Assembly (NCBI GenBank): GCA_044375465.1
Contig: JBILMN010000004.1
Span: 1-55,646 of the forward strand
From: Oligoflexales bacterium
GTDB lineage: Bacteria > Bdellovibrionota_B > Oligoflexia > Oligoflexales > RGVZ01
Length of the DNA: 55,646 nucleotides
Direction: 5' to 3'
Shown here: in pieces, positions 11,286 to 15,236 of the stretch
How the letters are laid out: every line of letters begins with the position of its first letter
How positions within the stretch are numbered: position 1 is the stretch's first letter
The notes under the pieces: model-generated
What the model saw: only the letters and a program-made list of their open reading frames with translations
Told to the model about the DNA's origin: nothing
Database searches by the model: none
Position numbers and translations under genes: made by a program

Positions 11286-11762
11286 ATGCCATGCAAAAAA
11301 TTCATTTCCACAATGTTGTTACCCGTTGCGCTCCTGTTTGAGGCATCACATTCGTCTGCGGCCGGAATTGCGATGCATGGAGAATTTTCAGAAGCTCAAA
11401 ATGATGGCTCACCCTGTGATCTCGTTTTTGCCGATTTGAGCTATTCCATTGAATTCCACCTGCTGAATAACCCACGCGCTGCGGTGATTTATTTTCCCCA
11501 GGCAGCCGACGGTCACAAAGGATTCTTCACCAAAAAGACCATGGTAGGCTCTCGTGGTTACGATGATCTACTTTTTCAAGATAAATTTATTTCAGAAGAA
11601 GCCCCTGGTGTCTCGTTTCAAATCACAGCAAGAGGCCTTTACTCAAGTGATCTGATACTTCTTGACTTCAGCGTCACGGCGTCTCCGCAAACCCCATCAT
11701 ATAATTTATCTGCAACACCGATCTGCAAGGCCTCGGCGCGATTGTTTGCCAGGACTGGGTGA
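11286..11762 (+). CDS. Hypothetical secreted protein
   Basis: GGAGAGG RBS, signal-peptide-like N-terminus, followed by a terminator. Confidence 0.7.
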   Translation: MPCKKFISTMLLPVALLFEASHSSAAGIAMHGEFSEAQNDGSPCDLVFADLSYSIEFHLLNNPRAAVIYFPQAADGHKGFFTKKTMVGSRGYDDLLFQDKFISEEAPGVSFQITARGLYSSDLILLDFSVTASPQTPSYNLSATPICKASARLFARTG

Positions 11763-11783: not shown

Positions 11784-11816
11784 AAAAAAAGCACCCGAGA
11801 CCGGGTGCTTTTCTTT
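11784..11816. terminator. Bidirectional intrinsic terminator
   Basis: AAAAGCACCCG / CGGGTGCTTTT inverted repeat between convergent genes. Confidence 0.85.
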
Positions 11817-11847: not shown

Positions 11848-12021
11848 TCACTCCTTCGTAGCCTTCTTCTTGGTGACCGTTGAACCCGCGGGCCTTGCGA
11901 CCTTGGGAGCGGCTACCTTCTTGCCTGCGCCAGCGATTTTCGCGGCGAGGCGGGCTTTTGCTTTACGCCAGGCTTTACGCTGACGAACTTTTGGTGTCTT
12001 ACGACTATCACCACGACCCAT
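11848..12021 (-). CDS. 57-aa highly basic small protein, candidate ribosomal protein (bTHX-like N-terminus)
   Basis: Absent from ORF track. MGRGDSRKTPKVRQRKAWRKAKARLAAKIAGAGKKVAAPKVARPAGSTVTKKKATKE; GAGGAGG RBS 6 nt upstream; 17 bp after rpmB; followed by a terminator. Confidence 0.85.
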   Translation of the reverse strand: MGRGDSRKTPKVRQRKAWRKAKARLAAKIAGAGKKVAAPKVARPAGSTVTKKKATKE

Positions 12022-12038
12022 TGTATTCCTCCTCAGGA

Positions 12039-12269
12039 TTAGCCTAATTTCACGCCTTCACGACGGCAGTATGCGTCAAGACCGAGCTTGTCGATCGTAC
12101 GAATCGCAGCGGCGCTGACCTTGAGTGAAACAAACTTCTTAAGCTCATCAGACCAGAAACGTTTGGTCTGAAGGTTCGGAAGGAATCTGTGGTTCGTCTT
12201 GATGTTCGAGTGGGACACACGATGTCCAACCAAAACGCCTTTGCCTGTGATTTCACAACGCTTAGACAT
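12039..12269 (-). CDS. rpmB: 50S ribosomal protein L28
   Basis: MSKRCEITGK...GHRVSHSNIKTNHRFLPNLQ...LKVSAAAIRTIDKLG. Confidence 0.97.
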   Translation of the reverse strand: MSKRCEITGKGVLVGHRVSHSNIKTNHRFLPNLQTKRFWSDELKKFVSLKVSAAAIRTIDKLGLDAYCRREGVKLG

Positions 12270-12272
12270 ATC

Positions 12273-12692
12273 TTACTCCTCCTCGCTCGCGCCTTTGCTT
12301 TCGGCACGGCCCTCTCCGCGGTCAGCAAAGCGACCTTCGCCGCGGTCACCACGACCTTCGCCGCGGTCAAATCGCCCGCGTCCGCCAAAGTCTCGTCCAG
12401 CCAACATCACTGTAGCAGCAGCCATTTCACCAGTAAATCCACGCTCAGGAGTGTGCGACACTGAGTAATGGAGTAGACCAAGGAAGCGGGCCTGTTTCAC
12501 AGCCAATGCAATCTGCCGCTGCTGCTTCGATGTGGCGCCGGAAATCCGTCGTGGAATAATCTTCCCACGTTCGGTGATAAAGCGTTTTAAAACATCGGGA
12601 TACTTGTAATCAATGACCAGGTTGGGGTCGAGCGTGCGCTTCTTGCGGCTTGCAAAACGGCGCTTGCGGCGTGGGCGTTCCACGTTTTCCAT
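12273..12692 (-). CDS. rpsR: 30S ribosomal protein S18 (Cys-free) with RG-rich C-terminal tail
   Basis: [26 protein letters not shown]...[17 protein letters not shown]; GGAGG RBS before ATG 12692. Confidence 0.95.
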
Positions 12693-12762
12693 TGTAAACC
12701 TCCGGAAAAAAACCTTTGTTAGTAAAGGACCGCCACCACGGCAGCCCAAAAATCGAACCGGC

Positions 12763-12791
12763 ACCTTACATAAACTTCACGGGCTTGTAAA
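12763..12791 (-). promoter_or_regulatory. Putative sigma70 promoter of the rpsR operon
   Basis: TTTACA-17 bp-TAAGGT on the minus strand. Confidence 0.6.
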
Positions 12792-12902
12792 GTCATATAA
12801 AGCGATAAAAGCCTTGAAAATCCGCATTTTCACGGTCAATCTGAAGGTGTCAGCACCTTAAAATCACTGCCTTGTCATTACAGGGTGTTACATTAGGAAA
12901 CC

Positions 12903-15236
12903 ATGACTGTCGAGTTGCACATCGCCGTTCCCTCACCGCTACACCAGACGTTTTCCTACGTCCACGAGACGCCCCTCCCCCCTGGAGTCCGCGTCCTGGT
13001 CCCTTTTGGACAACAGGCAAGAGCCGTGGGCGTTGTCCTGGCCGAGAAGATGGTTGCGCCAGGAGCACCGGATCCAGATAAAATCTTCGAACTCAAGGCC
13101 ATTAGAGAGGTTTTAGACAAGGATCCGATTTATTCTCCGGTGCTCCTTCGTCTCGCCCAGTGGCTCGCGCAATACTATATGTATCCCATCGGCGAAGTTC
13201 TGAGGACGATGCTTCCAGCAAGTAAAACAAAGACCGTTAAAGCGACCTATGAACTCACCTCTGACGCAAAACTTGACCCATCAAGCGACGAACTACAACC
13301 CGCACAGCTCTTTGGACGCAAGCAGACCATAAGTAAAACATCACTCTTGCTTAAACTGCGCGAACGAACCAACGACTCGCAAGAGGCGGCGGCCATCATC
13401 AGAAAATGGCAGCGAAAAAAGTGGATCGCGCTCGCCACTGACAAGAGTATTAAAGCAAGAATTGCACAAAATTCCGAGACCACGTCATCCGATACGACCA
13501 ACATCGGAGAGATCAAACACAATTTATTCCAAGACTTAAACGCCAGACAGGCCGACGCTGTTAAGGCCATCTTGGATGAGGGATTAAACCAGCGCGATGC
13601 AACCATGCGGAAACCGTTTTTACTTTTCGGCGTCACCGGATCAGGCAAGACCGAAGTTTTTCTACATGCTATCCGCGCTGCGATATCAGACGCACAAACA
13701 AACGCTGAAGTGAAGCCTCAAACTCTTGTTCTTGTGCCCGAAATCTCTTTGACACCGCAGATGACAAGGATTTTTGAGGAGCGATTCCCCGGTCTTGTGG
13801 CCGTGGTCCATTCCGCCATGGAAGACCATGAGCGCTGGCGTGAGCTGGACCGCGTCCGGCGTGGCGAAGCACTTGTTTTGATTGGCCCGCGTTCGGCAAT
13901 TTTTGGCCCATTCGCCAATCTCAAACTCATCATCGTCGATGAGGAGCATGACGGCAGTTACAAACAGGGAGACCGACTTTTATATCATGCGAGAGATGTT
14001 GCCGTTGTCCGGGCTGGCATGGAAAATGCGACCATCGTCTTGGGATCTGCAACTCCCAGCATGGAGACATGGCAAAATGCCCGCATGGGTAAGTACCGAC
14101 TTCTGGAAATGCCAGAACGCGCCAGCACCAAACCTCTGCCTGACGTTGAGATTTTGCCGGGAAAGCACGCTTTCAAAGCTTTATCCTATCTCAAAGGAGA
14201 TCAAAGCGAAGCTCTGGGCGAGCACGAGTCACCTTTTACTGACGAGGTTATCGCCGCACTGCAACAAAATCTTCAGCGCGGCCAACAAAGCATTGTCCTT
14301 GTTAACCGCCGAGGCTACGCCTATTACCTCATCTCCCTCGAGGACAAAAAAACTGCTGGCTGCCCACAATGCAGTATCAGCCTGAGTGTTCATGGCAGGA
14401 AAAAAATCCTACGATGTCACTACTGCGACTACACGACAACGATCCAAAAAGTGATCGCGGAGAACCCTGAAAAAACCTGGGCCGTAGTCGGTTACGGAAG
14501 CCAGAAGGCAGAAGAAACGCTGCACAAACTCATTCCCCAAGCGCGTATCGCCCGTCTCGATTCCGACACTGTGCAAGATCCACGCGCTCTACCCGAAATT
14601 CTTGGCAAATTTCGCGAAGGCGCCATCGATATTCTTGTAGGAACGCAAATTCTCGCAAAAGGTCATGATTTCCCAAACGTCACGCTCATCGCCATCCTTG
14701 AAGTCGATCAACTGTTAGGCCTCCCAGATTTCCGCGGCGGCGAACGAACGTTTCAGTTGCTTGTGCAAGCCGCCGGCCGATCTGGGAGGGGCACTCTACC
14801 GGGGAAAGTCATGGTCCAGAGTCTTCGCGGCCATCATCCCGTGGTGCAGACCGCCCTCAAACAAGACTTTCCATCATTTGCCCAGCTAGAACTGGCGTTT
14901 CGCCATGCCATGGGCTACCCCCCATTCGGTCGGCTGATCATATTTGAATTCAATGGTCCAGATGGACGAAAGCTGGATCATTGGTGCAACGATCTCGAAA
15001 CTAAACTCCTGAGCAAAATGGAACACCAACCCGATCTACTCAAATCGGTGCGCGTCCTGGGACCAGCCCCGGCCCCTATCGAGATCATTAGAGGTCGCAT
15101 CCGACGCACCATCATGATCCTATCTCCATCACTTCAGCACTGCCGCCAAGTGGGCGCCATGCTCGCCGCACTCACAGCAAAACCTCCGACCGACATCCGC
15201 GTCAAAATAGATGTCGATCCCCAGTCCACGTTGTAA
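12903..15236 (+). CDS. priA: Primosomal protein N' (replication restart helicase)
   Basis: GVRVLVPFG, GVTGSGKTEV, VPEISLTPQ, DEEHD, SATPS, GTQILAKGHDFPNV, IDVDP. Confidence 0.97.
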   Translation: MTVELHIAVPSPLHQTFSYVHETPLPPGVRVLVPFGQQARAVGVVLAEKMVAPGAPDPDKIFELKAIREVLDKDPIYSPVLLRLAQWLAQYYMYPIGEVLRTMLPASKTKTVKATYELTSDAKLDPSSDELQPAQLFGRKQTISKTSLLLKLRERTNDSQEAAAIIRKWQRKKWIALATDKSIKARIAQNSETTSSDTTNIGEIKHNLFQDLNARQADAVKAILDEGLNQRDATMRKPFLLFGVTGSGKTEVFLHAIRAAISDAQTNAEVKPQTLVLVPEISLTPQMTRIFEERFPGLVAVVHSAMEDHERWRELDRVRRGEALVLIGPRSAIFGPFANLKLIIVDEEHDGSYKQGDRLLYHARDVAVVRAGMENATIVLGSATPSMETWQNARMGKYRLLEMPERASTKPLPDVEILPGKHAFKALSYLKGDQSEALGEHESPFTDEVIAALQQNLQRGQQSIVLVNRRGYAYYLISLEDKKTAGCPQCSISLSVHGRKKILRCHYCDYTTTIQKVIAENPEKTWAVVGYGSQKAEETLHKLIPQARIARLDSDTVQDPRALPEILGKFREGAIDILVGTQILAKGHDFPNVTLIAILEVDQLLGLPDFRGGERTFQLLVQAAGRSGRGTLPGKVMVQSLRGHHPVVQTALKQDFPSFAQLELAFRHAMGYPPFGRLIIFEFNGPDGRKLDHWCNDLETKLLSKMEHQPDLLKSVRVLGPAPAPIEIIRGRIRRTIMILSPSLQHCRQVGAMLAALTAKPPTDIRVKIDVDPQSTL

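Follow-up and report, generated by a model that had tools for sequence, protein, structure and literature searches.

The set of ribosomal proteins (r-proteins) known from bacteria is still growing as the ribosomes of non-model phyla are solved, as the cases of bS22, bL37 and bL38 illustrate. Of these, bS22 has been reported in mycobacterial, Bacteroidia, Cutibacterium and Borrelia ribosomes. Two described proteins bear most closely on the locus reported here. One is bTHX (Thx), which in Thermus and plastids is embedded in rRNA at the head of the 30S subunit, in a cavity between h41 and h42 (PMC5737520). The other is bL38 (rpmL, DUF4295), a 5.6-kDa lineage-specific r-protein of Bacteroidia, whose gene lies downstream of those for bL28 and bL33 within one operon (PMC11851116). 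By the same account, bL38 folds as a beta hairpin packed on a helix, is required for the incorporation of uL6 during 50S assembly, and was recognised only once the Flavobacterium ribosome had been solved (PMC11851116). A precedent thus exists for the kind of gene considered here, a small lineage-specific r-protein candidate that ends an rpmB-containing operon.

We analysed a stretch of 55,646 nucleotides from a freshwater Oligoflexales bacterium (contig JBILMN010000004.1), which we refer to as the window, and in which an operon on the minus strand ends with a small basic open reading frame (ORF), hereafter X. The first gene of this operon is rpsR (bS18; 12273..12695; PF01084, E = 1.3e-22; TIGR00165), whose start was assigned at a conserved MENVERP that is also the start in orthologues. 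It is followed by rpmB (bL28, 76 aa; 12039..12269, stop codon at 12039-12041; PF00830, E = 3.2e-27; TIGR00009, E = 2.3e-24), which lies directly upstream of X. After a spacer of 17 nt (12022..12038, minus strand), within which a terminator scan reported no terminator-like site, X occupies 11848..12021 on the minus strand, stop codon included, with an ATG start, a TGA stop and 57 codons for amino acids. A Shine-Dalgarno sequence, GAGGAGG, is found 6 nt 5' of the ATG (12028..12034, minus strand), and no alternative in-frame start exists between this ATG and the preceding upstream stop. An intrinsic-terminator-like hairpin of 14 pairs with a T run (11784..11815, minus strand) lies 32 nt past the X stop. 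It is bidirectional, also closing a convergent plus-strand ORF at 11286-11762. Rfam searches returned nothing near gathering scores; a weak Phe_leader match at 11784-11815 (27.5 bits, where the gathering score is 55) reflects the terminator hairpin itself.

The product of X contains 13 Lys and 7 Arg, 20 basic residues in all, and its only acidic residues are Asp5 and Glu57. Residues 1-33 form a core conserved throughout the family described below, and residues 34-57 form a lineage-specific Ala/Lys/Pro tail. A sequence-only reading of the locus had described a 57-aa ORF with 20 Lys/Arg and two acidic residues, preceded by a GAGGAGG site, placed 17 bp after rpmB and just ahead of a terminator, at the end of an rpsR-rpmB operon; translation, the surrounding sequence and the PF01084 and PF00830 matches agree with that description on every point.

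Other features of the operon and its surroundings deserve mention. The bS18 encoded here is about 140 aa long, of which about 45 residues form an extension at the C-terminus (12273-12410, minus strand), with abundant Arg, Gly, Asp and Glu and with repeated RGD/RGE-like units. This extension seems to be conserved, given that orthologues from the genus are 132-140 aa long. The convergent ORF at 11286-11762 (plus strand) encodes 158 aa with a hydrophobic, signal-like N-terminus and had no Pfam or NCBIfam match. A promoter scan found one weak candidate ahead of rpsR, no more than shuffled sequences would yield. Two metatranscriptome runs contained a small share of the sequence words sampled; one yielded no contig, and the other, a freshwater run, a single contig of 153 nt over the rpsR/rpmB junction (12202-12344), which ends short of X and, with 13 differences, comes from a relative.

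Profile searches place X in most genomes of its phylum. A profile built from 22 sequences matched 120 of the 131 genomes sampled, each of them once at E ≤ 0.01. Of the 83 genomes of high quality (completeness ≥ 90%, contamination ≤ 5%), it matched 78. The 11 genomes without a match include five of the high-quality set and both genomes of one family (f17). As a yardstick, a search of these 131 genomes for bS21 (PF01165) likewise matched 120, among them 82 of the 83 of high quality. By subtraction of per-family tallies, X was present in 91 of 95 genomes of the window's order and in 29 of 36 genomes from other orders of the class; even a single X protein used as query matched 38 of 41 relatives. 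X is a core gene of its phylum even if it should prove not to be ribosomal.

The family is narrow, given that a complete HMMER search of 1.84 billion cluster representatives returned just six X clusters at E ≤ 0.001. A search of 5.8 billion proteins recovered 30 homologues at E ≤ 0.01, all unnamed or labelled 'hypothetical protein', and a wider profile search gave 317 proteins at E ≤ 10, among which every named one of the 120 listed was a 'hypothetical protein'. The same label was carried by those cluster members that had a name. Note that homologues have been called as genes, under this label, in both NCBI and JGI records. By their record titles and source names, they come from Oligoflexales metagenome-assembled genomes (MAGs) and from Pigmentibacter, that is, from Oligoflexia in the broad sense. 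Pigmentibacter ruber, a cultured member of the class, is among the carriers. We found no fusion proteins at E ≤ 1 among proteins of 124-2000 aa, a search that provides weak evidence.

The protein core of X has been held nearly constant. In within-genus pairs with the window's gene, dN/dS of the core (Nei-Gojobori) was 0.024-0.116 for the seven of nine pairs with finite dS, and dS was saturated in the remaining two. Among eight of the same nine pairs, rpmB gave 0.020-0.074. Across 24 orthologues, the core showed a mean pS of 0.72 and a mean pN of 0.28. This pattern of substitution indicates purifying selection on the X core as strong as that on bL28. Codon choice was also compared. Lys is encoded by AAG in 8 of 13 cases in X, at a frequency of 0.64 in seven r-protein genes and of 0.39 in 1217 long ORFs of the same genome (binomial P = 0.085 against this background), and Arg by CGT in 5 of 7 cases, against 0.40 in r-protein genes and 0.22 in the background (binomial P = 0.007). 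The Lys/Arg codons of X are closer to those of r-protein genes than to those of long ORFs, which is weak evidence because it comes from 20 codons. Taken with its distribution, the dN/dS values identify X as a real gene.

X represents an unnamed family of small, extremely basic proteins found across the Oligoflexia-type phylum. Members range from 34 to 73 aa, and only the first ~33 residues align throughout. The consensus of 25 such cores is MGRGDNRRTxKMRRRKAxRKKKxRxxxKIxAGKA, in which M1, G2 and D5 are invariant and N6, R7 and K11 nearly so. The core begins with the pattern MG(R/K)xDNRR(S/T), followed by a predicted Arg/Lys helix. Members from the window's order start with MG(R/N)GD(N/S)R and commonly have Trp18. 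In a second order, containing Silvanigrella- and Pigmentibacter-like bacteria, the start is MGK(K/S)DNRRT, with Gly4 replaced by Lys or Ser and with Gln at position 18. The two-part protein drawn in the sequence-only reading, a helix-like Arg/Lys segment with an Ala/Lys/Pro tail, holds for its first part, which is the family core; the tail occurs only within the genus and family of the window, and many members (34-44 aa) stop after a short KKK. RGD in X was also considered as a cell-adhesion motif, a reading that we rejected because X lacks a signal peptide and has KKD or KSD at this place in the second order.

AlphaFold2, run with the family alignment, predicts a single helix over residues 10-32 (~23 residues), no strands and a disordered tail. 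The overall pLDDT was 70.9, with means of 92 for residues 11-20 and 87 for residues 21-30, and the N-terminal nonapeptide was less certain. A Foldseek search of this model against the PDB gave no match at E ≤ 10, which is expected since the model is a single helix and not diagnostic.

Genomic context ties X to r-protein genes within one order. The arrangement in which rpsR, rpmB and X lie on one strand, with priA divergent, held at every locus examined from the window's order. An ATG-pattern scan yielded 34 unique loci after removal of duplicates, and three more loci (L063-L065), missed by that scan, also have X directly after rpmB. Across the 34, the distance from the rpmB stop to the X start was 10-73 nt, with a median of 18, and 33 had a Shine-Dalgarno-like motif before X. 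A scan of a genome collection with one peptide pattern found 14 loci, all with rpsR-rpmB-X. The conservation and linkage to r-protein genes for which a check had been proposed are thus borne out, at 120 of 131 genomes and at 34 + 3 loci of the window's order, as is the proposed sign of purifying selection, with a core dN/dS of 0.02-0.12 that resembles that of rpmB. In the second order, however, none of 11 loci (L056-L062, L066 and L069-L071; X homologues of 37-60 aa) has rpsR or rpmB within about 2.5 kb of X, and in several of them X lies downstream of a gene of ~397 aa and an ABC-type ATPase gene. The argument from the operon is therefore strong but limited to one order.

The order-wide layout is itself unusual. 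Common arrangements of these genes are rpsF-ssb/priB-rpsR-rplI and rpmB-rpmG. At 12273-15236, rpsR-rpmB(-X) is instead divergent from priA, and this layout is kept across the order.

We searched for X among known families. In Pfam and NCBIfam, X and the 25 cores gave noise only (Mak16, E = 0.17; IsozizSyn, E = 0.14). Against PDB sequences, one X profile (A1) gave a single chance hit, to uL18 at E = 2, and a second profile (A3) and a 35-aa member gave none. DUF6800, a lead from the ESM Atlas (score 0.83, 24% of cluster members), was rejected, as the two weak matches of its model, PF20607, in the genome lie on other contigs; a literature search found no paper mentioning this domain. The bS22/mS38 model (PF08213, COX24_C type) had no match in the window's genome (G000) at E ≤ 10, and no bS22 chain in the PDB was matched by profile A1, profile A3 or the 35-aa member. 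X is not a replacement for bS21, because bS21 is separately present in 120 of the 131 genomes. Nor do X and the 25 cores match DUF4295, since, noise aside, no Pfam family was matched at E ≤ 10. X is therefore not a detectable homologue of bTHX, bS21, bS22/mS38 or bL38. Neither a name, a model, a structure nor a paper for the family was found in Pfam, NCBIfam, the PDB, protein records or a limited literature search, and the match to a named family that would have removed the novelty of X did not appear in the first three of these.

The gene for bL33 usually lies next to rpmB, and we asked whether X might be a divergent bL33; this was rejected, as a 54-aa ORF on another contig (C77) is, read by eye, a putative bL33. 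Putative L33, L34, L35, L20 and L36 ORFs, also read by eye, are located elsewhere in the genome. The same genome contains further extremely basic small ORFs preceded by Shine-Dalgarno motifs, on contigs C280 (+5197, 47 aa), C133 (-5229, 35 aa) and C220 (-19353, 71 aa). These have Lys+Arg contents of 46-49%, one of them with KKAT repeats like those of histone-H1 tails, and they may be chance frames.

We propose, with a probability of roughly 0.5, that X is a new lineage-specific small protein that is ribosomal, or at least stoichiometric and stably ribosome-bound. X shows what r-protein genes generally show: a place in an r-protein operon (in one order), presence in 120 of 131 genomes and a dN/dS of 0.02-0.12. 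The sequence-only reading had offered a new small r-protein as one of two options, and operon position, prevalence, selection and codon choice speak for it at the level of sequence, with the operon linkage found in one order only. The last-cistron position, the strong Shine-Dalgarno sequence and the r-protein-like codons suggest amounts matched to those of bS18 and bL28 rather than stress-specific ones. X would be made together with bS18 and bL28. Its basic helix would then lie in a groove or cavity of the rRNA, where it could neutralise phosphate charge, with the N-terminal segment acting as an anchor. The variable Lys/Ala/Pro tail may remain flexible on the surface, as in other small r-proteins embedded in rRNA. 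A more specific form of this proposal, held somewhat more tentatively and at a little under even odds, is that X is an unrecognised r-protein family particular to the Oligoflexia-type phylum, with an MG(R/K)xD hook that is perhaps an ancient rRNA anchor shared with bTHX, by remote homology or by convergence.

A protein as basic as X could also bind nucleic acids in general, as a histone-H1-like nucleoid-associated protein or an RNA chaperone, and merely share an operon with r-protein genes in one order. The H1-like Ala/Lys/Pro tail of the window's lineage would suit such a role, as would the second order, with no linkage to r-protein genes, and the lack of homology to any solved ribosomal chain. 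We nevertheless regard this non-ribosomal role as unlikely. The H1-like tail is not conserved, and many members end at 34-44 aa. What the family does conserve is a specific module of 33 residues, in which M1, G2 and D5 never vary and N6, R7 and K11 hardly do; this points to a single defined binding site and away from unspecific coating. Furthermore, X is closely coupled to rpmB at each locus of the window's order that was examined, and its prevalence equals that of bS21.

X might instead act on the ribosome transiently, in assembly, hibernation or silencing, without being a constitutive subunit. Small basic proteins bind ribosomes sub-stoichiometrically in other bacteria, and co-expression with r-proteins would suit an assembly role in particular. 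The role of bL38 in uL6 incorporation during 50S assembly, as given in PMC11851116, points the same way. Our computations do not separate such a factor from the ribosomal protein that we favour, but a scan that gives weak evidence showed neither a stress-type promoter nor regulation apart from the operon, and we judge a transient role to be quite unlikely.

The other option raised from the sequence alone was a divergent bTHX. Under this explanation, X would have kept the MG(K/R)GD anchor and would fill the same cavity in the 30S head (h41/h42). Both families are tiny and very basic, and both start exactly with M-G-(K/R)-G-D at position 1. This start is seen in the window's X and in most of its order. 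The niche would be free, as canonical Thx was found in none of the 131 genomes: no match to PF17070 exceeded its cut-off of 29.7 bits, and among the matches listed none was at the X locus. Thx is also the second-nearest named cluster in the ESM Atlas (score 0.75), at the level of a lead only, and metagenomic Thx proteins, like X, bear variable tails rich in Lys, Ala, Pro and Glu.

Direct comparison of the two families nonetheless speaks against common membership. PF17070, the model proposed for this check, matched neither X nor any of the 25 family cores at E ≤ 10. As a control, we aligned 35 natural Thx genes from metagenome contigs, all 35 of which match PF17070; these were picked by their MGKGDKK start and cover only part of Thx diversity. 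The control profile recovered Thermus Thx and the plastid and mitochondrial bTHX chains from the PDB (E = 6e-11 to 4e-5), and X profiles found no Thx chain there at E ≤ 10. When X cores were aligned to Thx with hhalign, columns 1-6 alone were matched, with a probability of 45% and E = 2.2e-4, a result that lends the bTHX explanation some weight but also marks where the similarity stops. Across families, the highest score of the Thx model among 29 X proteins was 1.6 bits and that of the X model among the 35 Thx proteins 5.2 bits, against self scores of 46-66 bits.

The residues that define each family differ as well. In the 35 Thx sequences, G11-K12, G16, G19 and R22-P23 are invariant or nearly so, and these glycines and the RP motif have no counterpart in the 25 X cores. 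It had been remarked from the start that X does not resemble the GK..G..G..RP pattern of bTHX, and this stands. The match of the MGRGD start to bTHX also stands for the window's X; it does not extend to the second order, where Gly4 is not conserved (MGK(K/S)D) and Trp18 is replaced by Gln. X is, in addition, predicted to form one long helix, in contrast to the Gly-rich Thx. Tested in these ways, X does not appear to be a member of bTHX, and a divergent bTHX finds no support past the N-terminal pentapeptide, with none of 131 genomes above the Thx cut-off and hhalign columns limited to 1-6. The shared pentapeptide is, as far as these alignments indicate, a striking coincidence and by itself no evidence of homology. 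We hold it very doubtful that X is a bTHX, a judgement made with a control set that represents part of Thx diversity.

The control set is also informative about tails. In the metagenomic Thx genes (L087-L166), the 27-residue core is often followed by a long tail, of 10-30 or more residues, rich in Lys, Ala, Pro and Glu. Tiny r-proteins thus commonly carry variable basic tails such as that of X.

That X is a chance frame or antisense artefact over a conserved RNA or DNA element, as its shortness and two overlapping ORFs on the opposite strand (52 and 55 aa) could suggest, has a negligible probability and is effectively refuted: the protein core is almost invariant while synonymous sites are at or near saturation (dN/dS of 0.02-0.12 in the X frame), start, stop and Shine-Dalgarno sequence are kept in 33 of 34 unique loci, protein profiles recover X across 120 of 131 genomes, and no Rfam family is at or near its gathering score.

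If the ribosomal reading is true, X would join the 'b' series of r-proteins, receiving a number once a structure has been solved, and would add a family that is now labelled 'hypothetical' or missed by annotation pipelines. A literature search of limited coverage found no ribosome structure from Oligoflexia or a Bdellovibrio-like bacterium. A phylum-wide protein of 34-73 aa, co-encoded with bS18 and bL28, is therefore a concrete prediction for structural and proteomic work on an Oligoflexia ribosome. Should the MG(K/R)GD start be shared by ancestry, or reflect convergent anchoring in rRNA, it would bear on the evolution of very short r-proteins, and the pair of X and bTHX would then exemplify how tiny r-proteins are born or remodelled.

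X can be set beside several described proteins. Like bS21 and bS22/mS38, which are variably present among bacteria, it is small and rich in Arg and Lys. With bTHX it shares very small size, strong basicity, the M-G-(K/R)-G-D start and a short conserved core to which a variable basic tail may be added; unlike bTHX, it has no profile similarity past residue 6, lacks the conserved glycines and RP, varies at Gly4 and is predicted to be helical from residue 10 to 32. The likeness to bL38, as that protein is described in PMC11851116, is one of genomic position: each is a tiny lineage-specific product encoded by the last gene of an operon that contains rpmB, X beginning 17 nt after it. X follows bS18-bL28 with no rpmG between, whereas bL38 follows bL28-bL33, and X is predicted to be a single helix with a disordered tail and no strands, whereas bL38 combines a beta hairpin with a helix. 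bL38 (PMC11851116) is the best analogue of X, which follows the same genomic logic with another family and another predicted fold.
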